Source: Terriglobia bacterium | GTDB taxonomy: Bacteria; Acidobacteriota; Terriglobia; Acidiferrales; UBA7541 | Length of the DNA stretch: 64,000 nucleotides | NCBI GenBank assembly: GCA_963695545.1 | Contig: OY968796.1 | Location: 1,728,001-1,792,000, forward strand | Direction of reading: 5' to 3' | Part shown: positions 2,489 to 49,770 of the stretch, in pieces | Layout: every line of letters starts with the position of its first letter | Numbering within the stretch: the stretch's first letter is position 1 | Position numbers and translations under genes: made by a program | Notes under the pieces: generated by a model | Database searches by the model: none | Seen by the model: only the letters and a program-made list of their open reading frames with translations | Told to the model about the DNA's origin: nothing

Positions 2489-2552
2489 CCCCGCGCGTTG
2501 GTCGATGCCTTTGGAGGGGCGGATATTGTCTCCGCCTTGGCCGTGCGAATTT

Positions 2553-2578
2553 GTAGCGGAGGCCTTCAGGCCTCCATC
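2553..2578 (+). repeat. GTAG-type REP-like palindrome, copy 1
   Basis: GTAGCGGAGGCCTTCAGGCCTCCATC (stem GGAGGCCT/AGGCCTCC); identical 26-mer at 45158-45183. Confidence 0.8.
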
Positions 2579-2621
2579 TTTGCGCTCTCGGATCGCAATC
2601 GCCGCTAACGCCCCCTCATTT

Positions 2622-2651
2622 CTCGCGACACGCCACTCGTCTCTCGCCACT
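2622..2651. repeat. Heptamer short tandem repeat
   Basis: CTCGCGA CACGCCA CTCGTCT CTCGCCA CT. Confidence 0.6.
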
Positions 2652-2662
2652 TTCCTAATGCC

Positions 2663-2746
2663 GTCATTCTGAGCGAAGTCCCGACGCCCGGCCTTTCTGT
2701 CCGCGCCGCGCGGACAGGTCGGGACGCAGTCGAAGAATCCCTCTTC
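2663..2746. repeat. Nested palindromic REP-like element
   Basis: GTCATTCTGAGCGAA...GTCGAAGAATCC frame; GTCCCGAC/GTCGGGAC stem enclosing CTGTCCGCG/CGCGGACAG stem. Confidence 0.65.
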
Positions 2747-2832
2747 GTCTTCGCACCCCGCCGCAATCCCCGTTAACCCTCCGCCCGCCTTGACCGTGCG
2801 AATTCGTGGCGCAGGTCTTTTGTGGAAACTGT

Positions 2833-3236
2833 TTCGAATACTTATTTATTACTTGACACTATAATTTAATTCTGCTATCCTTCCGCATGTTCGCCCGCAA
2901 TCCATTCGAATGGTTGCCCTCCCTGACTTTTCCCGGCCTCGCCCCAGCATTTGCGCGCATCCGTTTGCACCCGAAACCGCTTTCCTCGCCCCGACAAATC
3001 CTTGATTTTCAAAAACATCCGCACTCTTATGTCAAAAAGCGCCCCTCTAAAGCACCTATTTTCAGTCAATTGCAAAAGAGTGCGCATCTCATTGAAACTA
3101 TTAATTATCAAGTGCCCTGTTTTCACATTCATCCGCACTCTTTCCCTGCAAACCCTTTGATTACATCATTTTACACTTTTGGTACCGGGGGTGGATGGAG
3201 GGGTAACTCGAAGGTTAACGGCCAGACCGCCCTCCA
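2833..3236 (+). other. AT-rich promoter-bearing repeat element, copy A
   Basis: TTGACA(2853)-17 bp-TATCCT(2876) with TGn extension, ATG at 2887, CATCCGCACTCTT twice, G-rich end; similar architecture to 44884-45117. Confidence 0.6.
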
Positions 3237-3427
3237 GCGACCATCGCGAGCCCAATTAAGGCCGATGTCGCCAGGATGCGGGCGGCACATATCGCACGTC
3301 CGCGGCGCGACGCAACTTTCGCGCCGCCTGTGCGCGCCCGCCCTCTTGTGCGAGAATGACTTGTTTTGGCGCGCTGGCTGTGGCGAGTGGTTCGCCGCGG
3401 AGAATTTTCGGGGAGCACGTTCTCACC

Positions 3428-4333
3428 ATGCGAGTCTCGATTTTTGCGGCGCTGATCGCGGGACTGATTTCGTTCCTCTCGCCCTGCGTCCTGCCGCTTG
3501 TGCCGGGGTACATCTCGATGCTCTCGGGCATCGGCGTCGAGCAATTGCAACGCGGCGAAAAACCGCGCGGCAGTTTGCTCGCGTCGGCTGTGGCCTTCGT
3601 CGCCGGGTTTTCGCTGGTGTTCATCGGCTTCGGAGCCTCGGCCAGCGCGGTGGGCCAATTTCTGGTGCGCAACAAAGACGTTCTGGGTCCGGTGGCCGGC
3701 GTGCTGATTCTGATGTTCGGTCTGCACCTGATCGGCTGGTTGGGCAAGATCGATATCGGCGCGGGCCTGGCCATCGGCGGCACGCTTCTGGTGTGCGGCG
3801 CATTCCTGTACGGCCGGCACGGCACGGCAACGATTGGTCCCGGCGGCGTGATCGGCGGAATTCCGTTCGCCGCGCTCTCCATCATCTTTCTACTCGGTCC
3901 GCGGCTCGCCATTTGGCTCAATCGCGATGTGCATTTCCGCCAGCTTGGTTCGAGCGGCGAGCAATCCTCTTCAGCCGGACCGTTCGCCGGAGTCGCGAGC
4001 GGATTCCTGCTGGGCTTTGCCTTCGCGTTCGGCTGGACGCCGTGCATCGGTCCGATTTTGGCGAGCGTTCTGGCGATGGCCGCCGCCAGCCAAACGGTTG
4101 GCCGCGGAATTTTCCTTCTGGCCGTTTATTCCGCGGGCCTCGCGATTCCGTTTCTGGTTACGGCGCTGGCGCTCAACAGTTTTCTGCGTTTCTACCAGCG
4201 CTTTCGCCGCTATCTGCACGCCGTCGAAGTCTCGAGCGGCGCGCTGCTGCTCCTCGTGGGCGGCCTGATTTTCTTCGATCGCTTGACCTGGCTATCGGGT
4301 AAACTGAGCTTTCTGAATCGATTTGTGCGCTAA
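3428..4333 (+). CDS. ccdA: Cytochrome c biogenesis protein CcdA (DsbD transmembrane domain)
   Basis: [12 protein letters not shown] and [11 protein letters not shown]ys motifs, multiple TM helices. Confidence 0.9.
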
Positions 4334-4346
4334 GGACGCGCCCGCT

Positions 4347-4928
4347 ATGCGAAAAACAATCGTGGTACTCGTGATCGTCGTCGCGCTCGTCACCCTGACA
4401 GCCTGGGCGAACCGCAAATGGCCCGCGGACGACGCGCAGGCGGCCCAGCAGCAAATCGCGCCCGCCGATTCCGCGCCGATCGGTTCCGATGACGCCGCGC
4501 TGCAAACCTTGCAGCTCGTCGACGTCAATGGAAAGCCGGTGACGCTCTCCGATTATCGCGGCAAGGTGGTTCTGGTCGATTTCTGGGCCACCTGGTGCGA
4601 GCCATGCAAAATCGAAACTCCCTGGCTGATCGACTTCCAGCAGAAATACGGTTCGCGCGGCTTCGTGATACTCGGCGTGGCTATGGATGAAGAAGGCGCG
4701 AAAATTGTCGCGCCCTATGTCGCCAGCACGCAGTTCGACGTCAACGGCCAGAAAGAAACCATGAATTACCGCATCCTGCTCGGCACCGACGATATCGCCG
4801 ATAAATTCGGCGGCGTCGAAGGCTACCCGACCGGCATGCTGTTTACGCGTGACGGCCGGAAAGTCAAAACGCTGATCGGTCTCGAAGATTACGACGAGAT
4901 GGATAAGGACATTCAGAGCCTGCTGTAG
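4347..4928 (+). CDS. TlpA/ResA-family disulfide reductase
   Basis: N-terminal anchor, DFWATWCEPC, GYPT cis-Pro; directly downstream of ccdA. Confidence 0.9.
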   Translation: MRKTIVVLVIVVALVTLTAWANRKWPADDAQAAQQQIAPADSAPIGSDDAALQTLQLVDVNGKPVTLSDYRGKVVLVDFWATWCEPCKIETPWLIDFQQKYGSRGFVILGVAMDEEGAKIVAPYVASTQFDVNGQKETMNYRILLGTDDIADKFGGVEGYPTGMLFTRDGRKVKTLIGLEDYDEMDKDIQSLL

Positions 4929-5023
4929 TTGGGACTTGCTGTAGTTTGTTCGGGTCTGGCGCGCGCTCGGCAGATTGATTTGGGTCGGCCTGACGATCGT
5001 CGAATTTGTTTCGCCATGCAGCG

Positions 5024-6148
5024 CTAAAGAATTTCGGCCGCGAGCGACGCCACGCGCTCCGCAATCGCCAGCGCGGACGTGAGGCCCGGCGATTCGATGC
5101 CGATCAGTTGAATCATGCGCGGCACTTCCTGGTCCGGCGCGATCACGAAGTCGGCCATGCCGGGATCGCCCGGCGGCAAAAGCTTGGCGCGAATTCCCGA
5201 GTGCGCCAGGCGCAGATCGTTCACCGTGATTTCCGGCAGCAACGGTTTCGCGGCGCGGGCGAATTCTTCCACGGGATGCCGATTGCGCTCGTAATCGTTT
5301 TTGTCGTCGATGTAATCCGCCGTCGGCCCGACCCACAGCGCGCCCGAGGTCGTCTTGGTGAGATGCATGCCGAGCGTGACGCCGGCCTGATGCGGCACCG
5401 GATACACCAGCGCGCGCACCAGATCGGCTTTTTCGCGCACCACTTCGCAGTATTCGCCGCGCACCGGATAAATTCGGTAGCGGTGATTGCCGATGAGCGC
5501 GGCGACTTCGTCGGCGAACAATCCGGCGCAGTTGATGACGCAAAGCGCTTCGACGGTTTCTTCCGTGAGGTCGGGCGCTTCGCCGATCGCGATGTGCGCG
5601 CGAATCGCATCGGAGCCGGGCTCAAGCGCGGTGACCCGCGCGCGGGTCAGCAGGCTCGCGCCCCGCTCGGTGGCCTGGCGCGCGTACGCTTTGAGCAATT
5701 CTTCCGCGTTGAGGATGCCGGTCGAAGGCACTTCCAGCGCCGCGACGGCTTCGATGTTCGGTTCGATCGCGCGAATTCGCGCGCGATCGATCAGGCGCAG
5801 CCCTTCGACGCCGTTCGTGCGGCCGGTTTCGCCGAGCGCTTCAAGCGCCGGCATTTCGTGTTCACTCGAGGCCACCACGAGTTTGCCGCAGGCAACATGC
5901 GGCACGCCGTGCGCCACGCAAAATTCGTGCGAGAGGCGATTGCCGCGAACGCAAAGGCTGGCCTTGAGCGAGCCCGGCGTGTAGTAAATGCCGGAATGGA
6001 TCACGCCGCTGTTTCGCGTGCTCGCTCCGGCGCCGAGTCGCGGCGCGCTTTCGACAAGGAACACGTCGCTCCACCGAGCCGCGAGTTCTCGCGCCACGGC
6101 GCAGCCCACCACGCCGCCCCCGATGACGAGTGCGTTGACTTGATCCAT
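5024..6148 (-). CDS. FAD-dependent oxidoreductase, L-2-hydroxyglutarate oxidase (LhgO)-like
   Basis: GGGVVG, STRNSGVIHSGIYY, GIESPGLTS motifs. Confidence 0.85.
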   Translation of the reverse strand: MDQVNALVIGGGVVGCAVARELAARWSDVFLVESAPRLGAGASTRNSGVIHSGIYYTPGSLKASLCVRGNRLSHEFCVAHGVPHVACGKLVVASSEHEMPALEALGETGRTNGVEGLRLIDRARIRAIEPNIEAVAALEVPSTGILNAEELLKAYARQATERGASLLTRARVTALEPGSDAIRAHIAIGEAPDLTEETVEALCVINCAGLFADEVAALIGNHRYRIYPVRGEYCEVVREKADLVRALVYPVPHQAGVTLGMHLTKTTSGALWVGPTADYIDDKNDYERNRHPVEEFARAAKPLLPEITVNDLRLAHSGIRAKLLPPGDPGMADFVIAPDQEVPRMIQLIGIESPGLTSALAIAERVASLAAEIL

Positions 6149-11886: not shown

Positions 11887-11976
11887 TGGCGGAGGGGGAG
11901 GGATTCGAACCCTCGAGGCCCTTTCGAGCCTGGCGGTTTTCAAGACCGCTGCCTTCAACCGCTCGGCCACCCCTCC
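11887..11976 (-). tRNA. tRNA-Ser (anticodon TGA)
   Basis: GGAGGGG/CCCCTCC acceptor stem, CTTGAAA loop, long variable arm, GTTCGAATC, encoded CCA; 90 nt. Confidence 0.97.
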
Positions 11977-31608: not shown

Positions 31609-31685
31609 CGGGACGTAGCGCAGCCCGGTAGCGCGCACCCTTGGGGTGGGTGAGGCCGCTGGTTCGAATCCAGTCGTCCCGACCA
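31609..31685 (+). tRNA. tRNA-Pro (anticodon GGG)
   Basis: CGGGACG/CGTCCCG acceptor stem, CACCC-TTGGGGT-GGGTG anticodon arm, GTTCGAATC, CCA; 77 nt. Confidence 0.96.
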
Positions 31686-40798: not shown

Positions 40799-41092
40799 GG
40801 ATTCGCGCCCGCATTTTTCCGTTGACGTTTGCAGTTGTAGGGACGGGGGTCGCCGCGGCGACCCTCCGCCCGCCTTTTTTCCGCCCGCAAAAAATCCACA
40901 CTCCCCGGCAGATTTTTCCGTACCCGCCATCCCCTATATCGCCCCTATCTTCCTGTCCCATAGCTACTTAGCCCAATGGCGCTTTGGAACAACAAATGCC
41001 CCCTTACGTCCCGAAAGGCACAGCAATGGAATCCAATTAGTCGTAACAATGAACCACACAACTACGCGGCCGCTACGGCCCGGGAGGAAATT

Positions 41093-41392
41093 ATGAACAT
41101 CACCAAACTTTGCAGCCGAGTGATTCTCACGACTGCATTGGCCGGCGGTCTGGCATTAGCCGTAGGAGCGCCGATCAACGCGGAACCCGACTATAGCAAC
41201 GCCTGTCATCAGCGCCTCGAAAACGATCGCGCCCGCATCGACCACGAAGCCGCGCGCCACGGCGAACACAGTCCACAGGTTGCCCATGCCGTTGACCGCA
41301 TGGATCAGGATCGTCAATGGTGCCGCGACCATCACTCCGATTGGGATCACACCCGCTTTGACGTCGGCATCTATTTCCGTCCAGGCCACTAA
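41093..41392 (+). CDS. Small secreted His/Asp/Arg-rich protein, paralog 1
   Basis: GGGAGG RBS, signal peptide, two Cys; close paralog at 41789. Confidence 0.85.
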   Translation: MNITKLCSRVILTTALAGGLALAVGAPINAEPDYSNACHQRLENDRARIDHEAARHGEHSPQVAHAVDRMDQDRQWCRDHHSDWDHTRFDVGIYFRPGH

Positions 41393-41640: not shown

Positions 41641-41788
41641 GCTTTCGCGGTTCGCCGCAGTCCGCAAGGGAGGGTCTCCATTTCCGCATCGCGCTTCTCC
41701 GTAACTCTTCGCCTCGCGTCTGAATCAAATCAATCGTACGAAGCAGTCTTCCATTTTTGAGGCCGTTGTGCCCCAGGAGGATCTCACG

Positions 41789-42082
41789 ATGAAAAGCACC
41801 AAGCTTTTAAGCCGAATTCTCTTCACCACCGCGCTCGCCGGCGGATTGGCATTAGCTGTCGGAACTCCAATCAACGCGGAACCCGACTACAGTAACGCTT
41901 GTCATCAGCGTCTCCAGAACGACAAGGCCCGCATTGACCACGACGCCGCCCGCCACGGCAACGACAGTCCCCAGGTCCAGCACGACGTCGCCCGCATGGA
42001 CACCGACCGCCAATGGTGCCGCGATCACAAAGCCGATTGGGACCACAGCACCTTCGACATCGGCATCTACATACATAAATAG
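41789..42082 (+). CDS. Small secreted His/Asp/Arg-rich protein, paralog 2
   Basis: AGGAGG RBS; shares TTALAGGLALAVG and PINAEPDYSNACHQRL with paralog 1. Confidence 0.85.
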   Translation: MKSTKLLSRILFTTALAGGLALAVGTPINAEPDYSNACHQRLQNDKARIDHDAARHGNDSPQVQHDVARMDTDRQWCRDHKADWDHSTFDIGIYIHK

Positions 42083-42768: not shown

Positions 42769-43614
42769 GTGGCACGAAAACGCACTCAGCCCGCGTCCCA
42801 ACTGAGTCATGACGAAGAATACTTTGAGACATTGGCCGGAGCTCTCCGTGTATGCGCGAAATACAAACCGATGTTCGGCCAAGGAAGAGCCGGTGGCGGA
42901 ATGACGCTAGAGCAATTTCGTCAATTGTACGGGTCTGATCCGTTCTACAGCTGGATCGGCATGGATTCACCGATGATGTACGCCGCTCACAAGGCGGCGG
43001 GAGGTATGACCTCGATTTACAGGCAAGTCGGAATCGGAGCACAGTGGATTTTCAACAAGGTGTTGCAACACACGCTTGGACTGTCAGCAGAACAAGCAGC
43101 GTGGGTCTACGAAGTCCCAAAAACAGGCGTGGGAACCAGAAAGCTGTCACTTGACGGCAGGATTGAGGTCCGCGATATTGCGGACGTGAACGCAAAGCGA
43201 CGAGTCCAAAACTGGATCAACAGTGGACTGAAAAGGGTTCTCGTTGATCCAGCGGCCGCGAGCGCTCCCAAGATGGGCGCCGTGTTCGAAGTTCGTCAGG
43301 GATACAAGAGCAAGGACTCCAAACGTCAGAACGCCGACCTTGCCAACGCCGCCAGCGCCTACGTTGAAGGCTATATGCCGGTTGTCGTGTTACTCTCGAC
43401 CCAGATAGACGGGGACGTCGCAATGCGCTACACCGAGGCTCGTTGGCTGTTGTTGACGGGAACGAAAGCAGGAAGCACGGTCGAGAGCACATATGCCTTT
43501 TGCCGAGACGTTCTCGGCTACGATCTCGCGGCGTTCTTTGAGCGCAACTCCGCGCGCTTCAAAGGCGAGATTGAAAAGGTGCTGACAGCACTATTGAAAC
43601 CCGATGGCAAGTAG
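42769..43614 (+). CDS. Putative type II restriction endonuclease
   Basis: Overlaps MTase start; SLDGRI...FEVRQGYKSKD resembles a PD-(D/E)XK variant; atypical composition. Confidence 0.6.
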   Translation: MARKRTQPASQLSHDEEYFETLAGALRVCAKYKPMFGQGRAGGGMTLEQFRQLYGSDPFYSWIGMDSPMMYAAHKAAGGMTSIYRQVGIGAQWIFNKVLQHTLGLSAEQAAWVYEVPKTGVGTRKLSLDGRIEVRDIADVNAKRRVQNWINSGLKRVLVDPAAASAPKMGAVFEVRQGYKSKDSKRQNADLANAASAYVEGYMPVVVLLSTQIDGDVAMRYTEARWLLLTGTKAGSTVESTYAFCRDVLGYDLAAFFERNSARFKGEIEKVLTALLKPDGK

Positions 43615-44854
43615 AGCCTCAACCGCAGTCCAACGTCTCGATCACCTCACTCACCGGGGCAACACGAAGTACACCCGATACGGATGGCTGCGACTGACGC
43701 CCGCGTTCTCTATACATCTAATCCTTGATCTCGTAAGGTCCCTGCCGACCGATGCTCGCGTCCTTGATCCGTTCTGCGGAACGGGCACAACCGCGCTTGT
43801 ATGCGCAGAGGAAGGCGTGGACTGTGACACGGCCGACATCAATCCGTTCTTGCTGTGGCTGGCCTCCGCAAAGACTGCCAACTACTCCAGACAGGAAATC
43901 GAGGCCGCCAAGAACGGCGCAGAACAGATCACGGTGGCGCTGCGAAACCGAAACGGGAAAACGGCCTCTTGGTACCCTCCACTGTTTAACATCGAAAAGT
44001 GGTGGGACGGCCCGATTCTGGAACGACTAGGCAAGATCAGGTCGATGATCGAAGATCAAGCAACGCAGCTAGGCCCGCAGGCCACGACACTGCTCAAAGT
44101 TTCCTTTTGCCGAGTGGTGATCGAGCTAGCGAATGTGAGTTTCGGGCATCAGTCGATGTCTTTTAAGAAGCCGCAAACCCAGATGGTGCTGCAAATTTTG
44201 ACCGACGCGACCGAAACAGTCGCGGATAAATGGCTCGAGACCACAAACAGCATACTTCAGGCCGCTCAGACACACATCCAGACCAAGCCGAACTGTTTGC
44301 CCTGTGACGCACGGAGCTTGACCGACACTTTTGCGCGAGCGAGCTTTGATTGTGTCATCACCTCACCGCCGTACCCAAACAGAATGAGCTATATACGCGA
44401 ACTTCGTCCCTATATGTACTGGCTCGGTTATCTGTACGATGCGCGCCAAGCCGGCGAACTCGACTGGAAAGCAATCGGAGGGACCTGGGGTTGCGCGACA
44501 AGCAACCTCAATGCGTGGCAAGCACCTGAATCAGGAATCCCGTTCTCAGAATTCGGGTCAATCCTGGCCCGAATTTCCAAGTCGAGCGGGCTGCTTTCCC
44601 GTTATGTCCACAAGTATTTCTGCGACATGGCGGTTCACGTTCGAGAATTGTTCGAGGTTGTGAAGCCCGGCGGAACTGTGCACTACATCGTGGGCAACTC
44701 GAAATTCTACGACGTCTTGTTGCCGGTGGAGCAGATATTCACATGCCTGTTCGAGCATGCCGGATTCGTGGATGCAAACTACACCGTTGTCCGAAAACGA
44801 ACGTCGAAGAAAGAATTGTTTGAATACGACGTCACCGCGACAAAACCGCTCTGA
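43604..44854 (+). CDS. DNA amino-methyltransferase (probably N4-cytosine, alpha-type motif order)
   Basis: DPFCGTGTT (motif I) before TSPPY (motif IV), VGNS. Confidence 0.88.
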   Translation: MASRASTAVQRLDHLTHRGNTKYTRYGWLRLTPAFSIHLILDLVRSLPTDARVLDPFCGTGTTALVCAEEGVDCDTADINPFLLWLASAKTANYSRQEIEAAKNGAEQITVALRNRNGKTASWYPPLFNIEKWWDGPILERLGKIRSMIEDQATQLGPQATTLLKVSFCRVVIELANVSFGHQSMSFKKPQTQMVLQILTDATETVADKWLETTNSILQAAQTHIQTKPNCLPCDARSLTDTFARASFDCVITSPPYPNRMSYIRELRPYMYWLGYLYDARQAGELDWKAIGGTWGCATSNLNAWQAPESGIPFSEFGSILARISKSSGLLSRYVHKYFCDMAVHVRELFEVVKPGGTVHYIVGNSKFYDVLLPVEQIFTCLFEHAGFVDANYTVVRKRTSKKELFEYDVTATKPL

Positions 44855-44883
44855 CTGCGGGCGGGCCTTTTCCACCCCTCCTA

Positions 44884-45117
44884 TTCGAATAGCTCATTAA
44901 TTTACATTGACACACAAGTACAGTTCGTGCTAAGCTTCTGAATGTACGCCGAACACATCATCCGTTTTTTCGCCCCCAACCCTTCTAGAATCAATACTTC
45001 TGAAAAATCGCATTTTAAACCTTTTAGAATCACCAGTTCTGGCGCAAAGGACTTAAAGTCGTTCAGAATCAGCACTTCCAAAAAACACCCGGGGGGGAGG
45101 GGGGTACCCGCCCTCCA
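44884..45117 (+). other. AT-rich promoter-bearing repeat element, copy B
   Basis: TTGACA(44907)-18 bp-TAAGCT(44931), ATG at 44942, AGAATC cores at 44987/45026/45065 (39-bp period), CCCGGGGGGGAGGGGGGTACCC end. Confidence 0.65.
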
Positions 45118-45157: not shown

Positions 45158-45183
45158 GTAGCGGAGGCCTTCAGGCCTCCATC
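45158..45183 (+). repeat. GTAG-type REP-like palindrome, copy 2
   Basis: Identical to 2553-2578. Confidence 0.8.
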
Positions 45184-47077: not shown

Positions 47078-48667
47078 TTAGGCTGCGGGTTTTGCGACGA
47101 TCGCCGGCGACTCAAGCGGCTCGCGTTTTCGCGCCGCGAGCCACGTCCACAGCGTGAGCCCGCTGCGCGCTTCGGCCCGCGCCGGAGCGATGATCGCCGT
47201 CGCGTAGCCCACGGCGAGCAGCACGACGTTGCCCACGACGCCGATCATGTATTCGTGCCACGTGAAGCGCGGCAGATGCAGTCGCGCCGCGACGCTCGCG
47301 CTCTCCGTCAGCGTCGCCCAGAGCGTGAAGACCAGGTTCGCGGCGATTCCGAGTTGTGCCGCGCGCGCCGTCGCTCTCGTGCTGAGGAACGCCAGCAGGA
47401 ACAGGCCCGCAAGCCCTCCTGCGACGACGGACATCACGCCGTAGTAGAGCGTGAGCGCCGTGCCGTGGCTGTGGATCAGCGTCCACGCCACCGCCAGCGC
47501 GGCGGCGCCCACGCCGAGCACCGCGACGCGCCCGACGCGCAGTTGGGCCGGGTCGCCGCTCGCCGGCCGCAGGAGGCGGTACCCGTCTTCGACGATGATC
47601 ATGGAAAGACAATTTAAATCCGACGCCAGCATGGCCATCGCCGCGCCGAACAGCGCCGCGAGAAAAAGTCCGGCAACGCCCGGAGGCAAATGCGTCGAGA
47701 AGAAGTACGGGAAAATCTGGTCGCCCTTCGTCACGTACGCGGGCAAGTGCTCGCCGGTGATCTGGAAGTACGACCACAGCAACGATCCGATCAGCATGAA
47801 CAGCGCCCACACTGGAATGCACAGCGCCGCGCCGAGCAGAATGCCGCGCAGCGCGGCGCGATCGGTCTTGGCGGAAAGATAGCGCTGCACCACCGATTGA
47901 TCGGCGGTGTATTTCTGGAGGTAGTACGACGTGCCGTAGAGCAGCAGCACCAGCATCGTCGGTGAGCGCAACGAGAGCGACGCGCTGCCAAGGCTTATCT
48001 TGTGCGCGTCCCACGCGACGCTGAGCGCGTGCGCTGGCCCGCCCGGCGGCAGAAAAAGTAGGTAGCCGACAGCAACCAGCCCGCCGCACGCCAGCAGAAT
48101 GGCTTGCAGCACGTCGGCCCAGATTACGGCTTCAAGCCCGCCGACCAAGGCGTACAACACGGCGACCACGCCGGCCAGCAGCAGAAGCGATTCGACGCGC
48201 CAACCCGTGATGCTGTTCACGGTGAGCGCGAGCAGATAAAAAACGAATCCCATCTTGGCGAGATGTCCGACGCCGAACATCAGCGCCGCGTAAACGCGCA
48301 CCGGTTTGCCGAAGCGGCTTCCGAAATACTCGAACGCGCTCATCCTCACCGCGTGGCGATAAAACGGCACGATCACAAATCCCGCGAGCAACGGGATAAG
48401 GAGAATCATCGCGCCCGGCATCATCAGCGACCAATCGCCTGCGAATGCCGATCCCGGATACGAGACGAACGTGAGGCTGGTGATAATCGTGGCGAGCAGC
48501 GAAATGCCCATCGCCCATCCGGGAATCGAGCGCCGCGCGACGAAGTAACTCTCCGTCGTGGTTTGCCGCCGCGAGAAGTACAGACCGAGCGCGAGCAACA
48601 CGACGAGGTACAAACCGATCACGGCGGGATTAATCCACGCCGCGCTGATCGACGCGGCGCTGCTCAT
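47078..48667 (-). CDS. Sodium:solute symporter (SSS family)
   Basis: YFVARR, GGLEAVIWADVLQ, DQSVVQRYLS; start 48667 (ATGA overlap) or 48799. Confidence 0.9.
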   Translation of the reverse strand: MSSAASISAAWINPAVIGLYLVVLLALGLYFSRRQTTTESYFVARRSIPGWAMGISLLATIITSLTFVSYPGSAFAGDWSLMMPGAMILLIPLLAGFVIVPFYRHAVRMSAFEYFGSRFGKPVRVYAALMFGVGHLAKMGFVFYLLALTVNSITGWRVESLLLLAGVVAVLYALVGGLEAVIWADVLQAILLACGGLVAVGYLLFLPPGGPAHALSVAWDAHKISLGSASLSLRSPTMLVLLLYGTSYYLQKYTADQSVVQRYLSAKTDRAALRGILLGAALCIPVWALFMLIGSLLWSYFQITGEHLPAYVTKGDQIFPYFFSTHLPPGVAGLFLAALFGAAMAMLASDLNCLSMIIVEDGYRLLRPASGDPAQLRVGRVAVLGVGAAALAVAWTLIHSHGTALTLYYGVMSVVAGGLAGLFLLAFLSTRATARAAQLGIAANLVFTLWATLTESASVAARLHLPRFTWHEYMIGVVGNVVLLAVGYATAIIAPARAEARSGLTLWTWLAARKREPLESPAIVAKPAA

Positions 48668-49770
48668 GTGATGGATGGCGTGGAACCGCTTGCGGATTGC
48701 GCCGAGCTGCTGGGAGATTGTGCCGATCCGCTGGGAGACTGTGGCGAGCCGCCGGGAGACGTCGGTGGCGTAATGGGAGATGGCGGCGGCGTGGCGCATC
48801 GCGTGCGCGCGCGGTTCTCCGCCATTTTCGCGGCCATGCGCATGGCGGCTTTCATGTTGCGCGCGTCGGCTTTGTTTTGTCCGGCGATGTCGAAGGCCGT
48901 GCCGTGATCGACGGAAGTTCGGATGATGGGGATGCCGACGGAAATATTCACGGTCTCTTCAAAATCGATCAGCTTCATCGGAATGTGTCCTTGATCGTGA
49001 TACATCGCGACGACCAGATCGTAGGCGCCGCGCGAAGCTTGCAGAAAAATCGTGTCGGGCGCGGCGGGACCGTCGCAGGGAATTCCAGACTCGCGCGCCT
49101 GGTGAATCGCGGGCGCAATGATTTGTTCATCTTCGGTGCCGAAAAGGCCGTGTTCGCCGGCGTGAGGATTAAGTCCGCACACAGCGATGCGGGGTTGCGC
49201 GAATCCGAGCAAACGCATGGCTTCGTGACCCGCTTTGATCGTGCGCACGATGCGCGGCGTATCCAGCTGAATGGCTTTGCGCAGCGGAACGTGCGTCGAG
49301 ACGTGCACGACGGCGAGACGCTGGTTGGCGAGAAGCATCCAGGACTCCGTGCAGCGGCACAGTTCGGCGATGTATTCGGTGTGCCCGGAAAATGATCGGC
49401 CGGAGAGTGTGACCGCTTCTTTGTTCAGCGGCGCAGTGACCATGGCATCCGCTTCTCCCGCGAGGCACATCTCGGTGGCCTTGCGCACATAGCGGACGGC
49501 CGCCGCGGCGCAGGCGGCGCTGAGGTGTCCGAAGCGCAGGCCCGATTTTTCGTGCAGCTCTTTGAGATCCAAGATGCGCGCGTGCAATTCTTGCGGTTTG
49601 ATTCCGCAGGTTTGACCGGTGCGATCAAGCACCCAGGCGTCGCCGACGACAATCCAGTTTGCGAGCGACGCGATTTCAGGATCGGCGAGCGCTTTGAGAG
49701 TGATTTCGGCGCCGACGCCGGCCGGATCGCCGATGGTGACAGCGATCGATTGTTTTTTCTCTTCCGTCAT
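48664..49770 (-). CDS. pdxA: PdxA/PdxA2 four-carbon acid-sugar 4-phosphate dehydrogenase
   Basis: GDPAGVGAE, GHTE, NPHAGE, MYHDQG, RTSVDHGTAFDIAG. Confidence 0.92.
   Translation of the reverse strand: MTEEKKQSIAVTIGDPAGVGAEITLKALADPEIASLANWIVVGDAWVLDRTGQTCGIKPQELHARILDLKELHEKSGLRFGHLSAACAAAAVRYVRKATEMCLAGEADAMVTAPLNKEAVTLSGRSFSGHTEYIAELCRCTESWMLLANQRLAVVHVSTHVPLRKAIQLDTPRIVRTIKAGHEAMRLLGFAQPRIAVCGLNPHAGEHGLFGTEDEQIIAPAIHQARESGIPCDGPAAPDTIFLQASRGAYDLVVAMYHDQGHIPMKLIDFEETVNISVGIPIIRTSVDHGTAFDIAGQNKADARNMKAAMRMAAKMAENRARTRCATPPPSPITPPTSPGGSPQSPSGSAQSPSSSAQSASGSTPSIT
48670..48795. repeat. 21-bp degenerate tandem repeat, about 6 units
   Basis: GGGAGA recurs at 48712, 48733, 48754, 48775. Confidence 0.8.

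Follow-up and report, generated by a model that had tools for sequence, protein, structure and literature searches.

The position and strand of a dispersed, promoter-bearing intergenic element predict an origin-like local flip of the GC skew in the genome that contains the window (by which we mean the whole stretch of 64,000 nucleotides analyzed here), a single 4.16-Mb contig with 60.6% GC whose proteins have relatives labelled Candidatus Acidiferrales / Terriglobia. The element family is undescribed, real and order-wide, and two of its copies, A and B, lie in the window. As the best explanation we propose that the elements are transcription-dependent secondary replication start zones, a reading of the genome sequences that we place a little short of an even chance. 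The initial annotation had interpreted the two blocks as a promoter-carrying mobile or regulatory repeat cassette. As a whole this interpretation is partly supported; a skew flip tied to element orientation, the evenness with which the elements are spaced and a zinc-finger gene accompanying some of them lay beyond its view.

Every feature listed by the annotation as shared by the two blocks was found in its place, and both frames are open from the ATG, for 471 codons in copy A and 707 codons in copy B. The features are:

2489..3320, no strand: stretch missing from the empty site of the congeners, with REP-like palindromes and copy A; edges approximate
2821..2828, + strand: putative DnaA-box-like motif TGTGGAAA of copy A, of the same type as motifs around dnaA of this genome
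2833..2840, + strand: TTCGAATA motif of copy A, a likely operator in view of the genome-wide concentration of ATTCGAAT/TATTCGAATA at elements; TTCGAA at 2833-2838, a second TTCGAA at 2905-2910
2853..2881, + strand: predicted sigma70-type promoter of copy A, with TTGACA (2853-2858), a 17-nt spacer and the extended -10 TGCTATCCT (2873-2881), followed by 5 nt and the ATG at 2887
2887..4302, + strand: predicted leaderless open frame of copy A; the part under selection appears to be the repeats and the G-run, and the peptide is unconserved
3006..3180, + strand: type-A AT-rich core of copy A, with inverted arms AAGAGTGCG (3076-3084) and CGCACTCTT (3134-3142), a further arm (3020-3028) and a site resembling the IHF consensus (3060-3071)
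3187..3205, + strand: G-run of copy A, the 3' end of the conserved element
3000..6000, no strand: origin-like GC-skew minimum 3' of copy A, at 3345 for all positions and at about 5500 for third positions
3346..3357, + strand: -10-like motif native to the dsbD-like gene, which the empty alleles of congeners G003 and G004 have as well
44869..44891, + strand: TTTCCAC and TATTCGAATA motifs of copy B; TTCGAA at 44884-44889
44907..44936, + strand: predicted sigma70-type promoter of copy B, with TTGACA (44907-44912), an 18-nt spacer and the extended -10 TGCTAAGCT (44928-44936); ATG at 44942
44942..45111, + strand: predicted leaderless frame of copy B across three type-B repeats AATCA-N4-TT (at 44989, 45028 and 45067) and the G-run (45091-45104), in frame and continuous with the downstream esterase/gluconolactonase gene to 47065
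48000..49000, no strand: origin-like GC-skew minimum 3' of copy B, at 48455

The sequence CCGCCCTCCA (3227-3236 in copy A, 45108-45117 in copy B), which had been taken for the common end of the element, occurs in only these two of 107 copies and is a coincidence. Copies A and B do belong to one family, but they are not close partners: they fall into distant subfamilies, B ranking 71st of 82 among the partners of A, and the closest relative of copy A lies 7 kb upstream, just beyond the window edge. REP-like palindromes of the GTAG and GTCATT types adjoin both copies (2553-2575, 2663-2739 and 45158-45180). A low-GC two-gene unit (42769-44854, + strand), which encodes an endonuclease-like ORF with no Pfam match and an N6/N4 methyltransferase, stops 30 nt short of copy B. 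The window also contains tandem paralogous genes for small secreted proteins with His/Asp-rich helices (40976-41392 and 41768-42082, + strand) and tRNA genes at 11890-11976 (- strand) and 31609-31682 (+ strand).

A search of the genome for the promoter module (TTCGAA, -35 and extended -10), which did not demand a start codon, identified 90 sites, and the same search of the reversed genome identified none. At 86 of the 90 sites a start codon (57 ATG and 29 GTG) follows the -10 at exactly 5 nt, while only 4 of 166 other near-consensus promoters have ATG or GTG there; the shared layout is not due to chance. Profiles of two core types added 23 loci (none in the reversed genome), giving 113 in total, and we put the number of copies in the genome at 107-113. 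For the skew analyses we used 107 copies, the 90 sites and 17 additional loci scoring at least 60 bits, and omitted six weaker ones. The 113 loci have a mean gap of 36.8 kb with a coefficient of variation of 0.59, compared to 0.98 for random positions, and such evenness was matched by none of 5000 random sets. The motif ATTCGAAT has 104 of its 124 genomic occurrences at elements, and TATTCGAATA 48 of 49. TTCGAA as such is strongly avoided genome-wide (564 occurrences versus 1861 expected), yet it is retained at the elements.

In 58 of 61 copies a distance of 57-58 nt separates the inverted arms of the type-A core, whose letters are invariant; type B has AATCA-N4-TT repeats. Matches to the IHF consensus number 32 in sense and 49 in antisense at the elements versus 9 in shuffled sequences. 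A G-run closes all copies, and in type A its ends are palindromic. The copies are old, the median best-hit identity being 76%. The type-A core has a folding z-score of -2.7, which arises from its arms being inverted and invariant; for type B the score is +0.18. With 0-1 double changes per core pair among the 61 copies, the arms give no support for an RNA stem, and their invariance without covariation fits protein sites on DNA. A structured form of the repeat RNA considered by the annotation is not supported as the main function, the type-A arms lacking compensatory changes and type B being unstructured. A known structured RNA family was rejected as well, as there were no covarying stems and a scan of the window at Rfam gathering thresholds returned two tRNAs only; the view that the element matches no described family holds in Rfam. 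A search of the openly accessible literature found no description of the element, and the passages of PMC5900883 (on acidobacterial prophages) consulted do not contain the term "GC skew".

The annotation had also regarded the family as dispersed and changing places, which is supported by the gap between lptD and dsbD: its length is 943 nt in the present genome and about 120-130 nt in four congeners. These lack copy A at the site and retain a -10-like motif before the downstream gene. In this respect the locus behaves like that of a MITE or a non-autonomous IS. Contigs from four sequencing runs of one study contained no joint cleanly deleting copy A. In the congener G004 a type-B core likewise precedes the gene found downstream of copy B. 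Terminal inverted repeats average 4.9 nt, with none of at least 10 nt in 83 copies, and flank repeats average 6.3 nt, the same as in mismatched pairs, although old copies could have lost target-site duplications; on these two features a MITE or non-autonomous IS was rejected. Local hopping in general was rejected: the nearest relative lies within 60 kb in three of 83 copies, with 2.2 expected by chance, copy A and its neighbor being the exception. Membership in the SOS (LexA) regulon was ruled out too, since the LexA box RTTC-N7-RTTC is found in 9 of 90 copies, versus 4-13 for other spacings, and is not enriched.

To describe the asymmetry around the elements, we oriented the GC skew by element strand. 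At third codon positions its value at -4 kb is -0.24; it changes sign near +4 kb, climbs to a peak of +0.15 at about +12 kb and has faded at a distance of 20-30 kb, and genes of either strand behave alike. Both window copies conform to this pattern. At four-fold degenerate sites the element model gains 0.46 in R2 (0.42 and 0.43 in held-out halves), a gain that did not exceed 0.055 in 300 random intergenic sets or 0.21 with randomized element strands, and the coefficient of the replichore (oriC-ter) term is 0.001. An element points at 75 of the 92 skew minima (34% for random positions) and away from three; 15 of the 92 remain with no element found after two more were accounted for. From minimum to minimum the skew follows an N-shaped ramp. 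The site-linked, origin-like strand asymmetry expected of any replication origin is thus present. One consequence is that origin and growth-rate estimates based on skew fail in this bacterial group.

Several other sources of the zigzag were rejected. The KOPS-like motif [AC]AGGGAA retains its ori-to-ter polarity in all four classes of local skew, which rules out inversions. Convergent gene junctions remote from elements have no origin-like flip. The orientation of the elements is independent of the replichore (53 versus 54) and therefore has no leading-strand bias. An origin of the oriC type was dismissed because there is no cluster of DnaA boxes and the flip is about 4 kb off the element: a strict DnaA box is absent from all elements, and a one-mismatch box occurs in 7 of 107, with at most one variant per copy. 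The dnaA-dnaN-gyrB-gyrA region is intact, and dnaA lies inside an unbroken stretch of negative skew with no flip there. As side observations, [AC]AGGGAA is polarized towards about 3.37 Mb like KOPS and is flat between 0.9 and 1.95 Mb, a search of the genome for the dif pattern found nothing, and the 23S (about 1.240 Mb, + strand) and 16S (1.601 Mb, - strand) rRNA genes, located by motif, are not linked but separated by 360 kb, each being oriented against forks from an origin at dnaA.

The same oriented-skew, orthologue and four-fold-site data would also be expected if some other element-directed, strand-asymmetric process, rather than regular replication starts, wrote the skew, such as nicking with strand displacement, oriT-like transfer or break-induced replication by some nuclease. 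Such a process, which we consider improbable with all its variants taken together, agrees with the palindromic ends of the type-A G-run, with the lack of gene co-orientation described below and with the concentration of atypical genes upstream of the elements (32% low-GC versus 15%). It would also fit the location of RAYT-like genes 1.4-4.4 kb away from elements and the REP-like repeats, which adjoin 25 of 107 elements compared to 28 of 595 other gaps. However, a nick at the G-run predicts a one-sided skew with its flip at the element, while the observed skew is two-sided and centered about 4 kb away, and no enzyme is linked to the element. The element itself is not a REP or REPIN with short GTAG/CGTC hairpins as its ends, given that such repeats are near only those 25 copies. 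By motif, the genome has three RAYT-like genes, at 1.199, 1.476 and 1.479 Mb.

A leaderless transcript, as proposed by the annotation, is predicted from the start codon 5 nt past the -10. The frame that begins there was analyzed in 83 of the 90 copies, leaving out seven with an unclear start or end. It contains 4 stops, versus 168 and 193 in the other two frames, and is open in 80 of 83 copies; without the end rule, all 90 copies give 19 stops versus 168 and 194, with 81 open. The type-A core is nevertheless read in frame 0 in 23 copies and in frame 1 in 31, and 13 copies switch frame between the arms. As reading frame and peptide are unconserved across copies, a small-protein family was rejected, and a peptide as the main function is not supported. 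The open start frame together with the differing core frames suggests selection for translatability and not for a peptide. The frame extends beyond the G-run, where a stop within 30 nt follows in 3.6% versus 20%, and it is open in all 20 copies whose next gene is antisense. With a C/G ratio of 1.95 in the element body the predicted RNA is C-rich, and the genome has a rho gene. We infer that a ribosome may be required to bring RNA polymerase across the element. Leaderless frames are also present in several copies from other genomes and mostly absent from the copies of genus g11.

The frame data bear on the idea that the elements are a mobile promoter cassette, that is, regulon-like portable promoters for downstream genes with a repeat RNA or peptide, which we regard as distinctly unlikely. 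It would account for the near-consensus promoter, the common operator-like motif and the empty sites in congeners. The next gene is co-oriented with the element in 79 of 107 cases, with about 59% expected from the gap classes, and the element frame joins that of the next gene in 12 of 83; gene-level counts, here as elsewhere in the analysis, are approximate because gene calls came from a home-made codon model. On the other hand, the frames kept open opposite antisense genes indicate that promoter supply is not the point, the core frames differ, covariation is absent, and neither spacing nor skew is explained. In the case of copy A, dsbD has its own -10-like motif here just as in the empty alleles, so the promoter supply suggested by the annotation is not upheld.

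Comparison with other genomes connects the skew to the elements rather than to the genes. For 136 orthologue pairs shared with the congener G001 the skew is uncorrelated between the two genomes (r 0.02); it tracks the elements of the gene's own genome (r 0.65) and not those of the other (-0.11 and 0.11). For lptD, the skew is -0.49 here and +0.18 in G001. An out-of-sample test in G001, where three elements are known in 400 kb, gave r 0.58 for 42 genes near elements. Skew minima are unconserved between genomes, as far as coarse mapping goes. Among loci anchored by the zinc-finger gene (33 found, 32 analyzed, 22 with both flanks, several per genome), the upstream skew is negative and the downstream skew higher in 21 of 22; at motif-anchored loci the downstream skew is higher in 20 of 26. 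The tracking of elements by orthologue skew and the 21 of 22 loci show that the element marks the asymmetry. From these sequence comparisons we consider it likely that the element also causes this asymmetry, which is heritable, affects both sides and has the sign that a bidirectional origin would give.

We give very little credence to a selfish, non-autonomous element that inserts in an oriented manner beside skew flips of other cause. Turnover between congeners, the 15 elementless minima and the zigzag of genome G017, which is equally strong with no element recognized in 200 kb, would be in its favor. It is contradicted by the lack of conservation of the minima, by the orthologue skew following each genome's own elements, by the absence of target duplications and terminal repeats, and by old copies that still keep promoter and frame. 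In G017, a genome without the zinc-finger gene, the minima are at 687 and 782 kb (C3, 600001-800000), and at 7 kb from the latter there is an AT-rich block that contains TATTCGAA and a G/C run. None of the candidate control genomes is a clean negative, since G001 carries elements, G017 has the zigzag and G016 a weaker one.

Four copies are accompanied by a gene of 140-170 codons, which starts 30-45 nt past the G-run and is preceded by a Shine-Dalgarno-like motif. Its product has the motif C-x9-C-x11-C-x2-H, and the structure model features a small finger, a helical hairpin and an extended tail. The protein matched nothing in Pfam, PHROGs or NCBIfam, and Foldseek returned nothing at E<=0.001 in PDB or BFVD. 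The Atlas lead, DUF5763, scored only 0.84; none of 2497 relatives has a family name, and three matches of the pattern in viral contigs yielded no confirmed case. The gene was found in 45 of 121 relatives, with 1-11 copies each, next to a G-run in 23 and a promoter in 22 of 32 loci. As it usually stands behind promoter, repeats and G-run, full and gene-less elements exist across the order.

This gene is central to a further explanation, which we rate as rather unlikely in its entirety: the elements would be pac-like packaging-start sites of a conserved single-copy GTA-like prophage, the zinc-finger protein its small-terminase adaptor, and scattered downstream cuts followed by repair synthesis or single-strand uptake by recipients would write the skew. 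The genome has one cluster (3.384-3.419 Mb) with terL, a portal-position gene, a capsid gene and an O-like initiator gene, in which no integrase was seen, and the capsid gene is found in 79 of 121 relatives, mostly as a single copy. The finger, hairpin and tail presumably constitute a small-terminase-like layout. A tail of this kind is present in 137 of 263 family members and is shared with a 92-aa cluster protein (hhalign 85%, 17 columns), which itself resembles phage clusters and DUF5681. The IHF-like sites would also suit packaging, as would the 37-kb mean spacing of the elements, which we take to be near a phage headful. Against this, the capsid gene is present in 24 of 45 genomes with the zinc-finger gene and 55 of 76 without it, that is, without co-occurrence (single queries, by which divergent forms may be missed); the 92-aa protein occurs in just 2 of 31 genomes; and the zinc-finger protein has no fold match to any terminase subunit, the best VIA Z being 6.4 for a helical pair. 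Moreover, for a skew twenty times as strong as the replichore signal the majority of substitutions would have to go through particles, and the frame kept in about 100 copies without the zinc-finger gene is left unexplained. Among the 10 genomes of the zinc-finger-anchored loci, 8 have the capsid gene, too few being without it for comparison. In our view the tail shared with the 92-aa protein tells more about ancestry than about current function; a phage small-terminase/packaging module is the likely ancestor of the element module.

The cluster (3384000-3419800; loci L016, L017 and L136), whose capsids are mostly 74-92% identical, has a strong promoter and then a terminator-like hairpin ahead of the structural genes and an IS3-like element between the portal-position and capsid genes. 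It is a candidate for an undescribed gene transfer agent.

Under our preferred reading, secondary replication start zones would extend 0-12 kb downstream of the elements, with DNA synthesis in both directions. The element promoter would fire; a leaderless ribosome would screen the C-rich RNA from Rho while RNA polymerase passes the repeats and the G-run; and the repeats would bind IHF-type benders and the zinc-finger protein, supplied in trans by the four full copies. At the transcript end downstream, an RNA-DNA hybrid or transcription-driven opening may load forks, which would travel about 20-30 kb in either direction and, in surviving lineages, do so with a frequency sufficient for their signal to exceed that of oriC about twenty-fold. 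Sign and size of the skew, the ramp shape and the even spacing fit forks from a zone downstream of the promoter, and the open frames (including those facing antisense genes), their continuation beyond the G-run and the C-rich RNA indicate that transcription itself matters. Other observations speak against start zones: there is no co-orientation of genes with the forks inferred locally (48% of 1652), the polarity of the KOPS-like motif continues to define a single ori and a single ter, and the dnaA region is intact. The elementless minima, the zigzag of G017, three loci without a flip in genome G100, the g11 copies mostly devoid of the leaderless frame and the absence of strict DnaA boxes do not fit either. 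The flip, 3-5 kb from the element, is unmarked by any motif among intergenic 7-mers, and the A/T skew undergoes a weak shift in the direction of that of G/C, in contrast to what simple C deamination would give. Priming by R-loops in particular is disfavored by the presence of genes for RNase HI, RecG and Rho and by translation, wherever the ribosome sits. Skew alone, as PMC3269012 states in the part used here, is no proof of origins. A broader version, possible although we lean against it, holds that in Acidiferrales the chromosome is copied largely from about 100 portable transcription-driven zones with oriC minor or organizing, that these zones, spaced like yeast origins, are set by a domesticated phage-derived element, and that the element RNA is translated only to sustain transcription.

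A single origin per bacterial chromosome is near dogma, and earlier proposals of multiple bacterial origins relied on skew plots without a defined sequence. Here skew switches are predicted by a defined element that relocates together with them from one species to another and is found again throughout an order of abundant soil bacteria, which makes the multi-origin question directly testable. Should the packaging explanation be true, we would be dealing with a gene transfer agent for which dedicated start sites tile the chromosome. Under both explanations, a frame kept open regardless of content is a clear natural example of translation as such being selected. It is also a warning to annotators, as the element frames give many spurious "hypothetical proteins".

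Among known systems, ColE1 RNA II and oriK, the R-loop-primed starts of constitutive stable DNA replication (cSDR) in E. coli, are similar to the proposed start zones in having an upstream promoter, transcription over a G-rich tract and initiation downstream along transcription. According to the passages of PMC5043065 and PMC4287441 consulted, RNA II is non-coding with a single start point 550 nt off, oriK sites are regarded as widespread and stochastic, and cSDR, which is observed in mutants, lacks a defined sequence. The element described here is, in contrast, defined, repeated and predicted to be translated, and in wild genomes it is associated with a broad zone kilobases away; the G-run is present and the RNA is predicted to be translated across it here, while it is non-coding in genus g11. 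The lambda origin is activated by transcription from pR, which must traverse the site (PMC5043065, same passages). An O-like initiator gene is present in our genome and transcription across the site is proposed; lambda, however, has one phage origin with iterons inside the O gene, while there are about 110 host-chromosome sites here, and inspection by eye found no element repeat in the O-like gene.

What gene transfer agents have in common with our genome is a cluster of prophage origin that is conserved, single-copy and equipped with an initiator gene, and, under the readings proposed here, an extra bidirectional origin or spaced packaging starts. In the parts of the sources used, the Bartonella BaGTA has run-off replication from one origin beside phage genes (PMC2697382), and the packaging peaks of the Dinoroseobacter GTA are regularly spaced, with no sequence element at the peaks in those passages (PMC5786225). 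The difference lies in about 110 defined sites that do not co-occur with the cluster. Mobile promoters, Correia, ERIC and REPIN-type repeats and MITEs (PMC3575422) are likewise intergenic, promoter-bearing, repeated and variably present between relatives; our element has no terminal inverted repeat or target duplication and differs from them in its open frame of varying phase, its even spacing and its effect on skew. Finally, multi-origin archaea and yeast and the skew-based bacterial proposals (PMC3269012, in the part seen) have in common with our genome many polarity switches, N-shaped ramps and regular spacing. Archaea have few origins with adjoining initiator genes, whereas ours is a GC-rich bacterium with an intact dnaA, and the bacterial proposals name no element, whereas here a repeated element predicts the switches.
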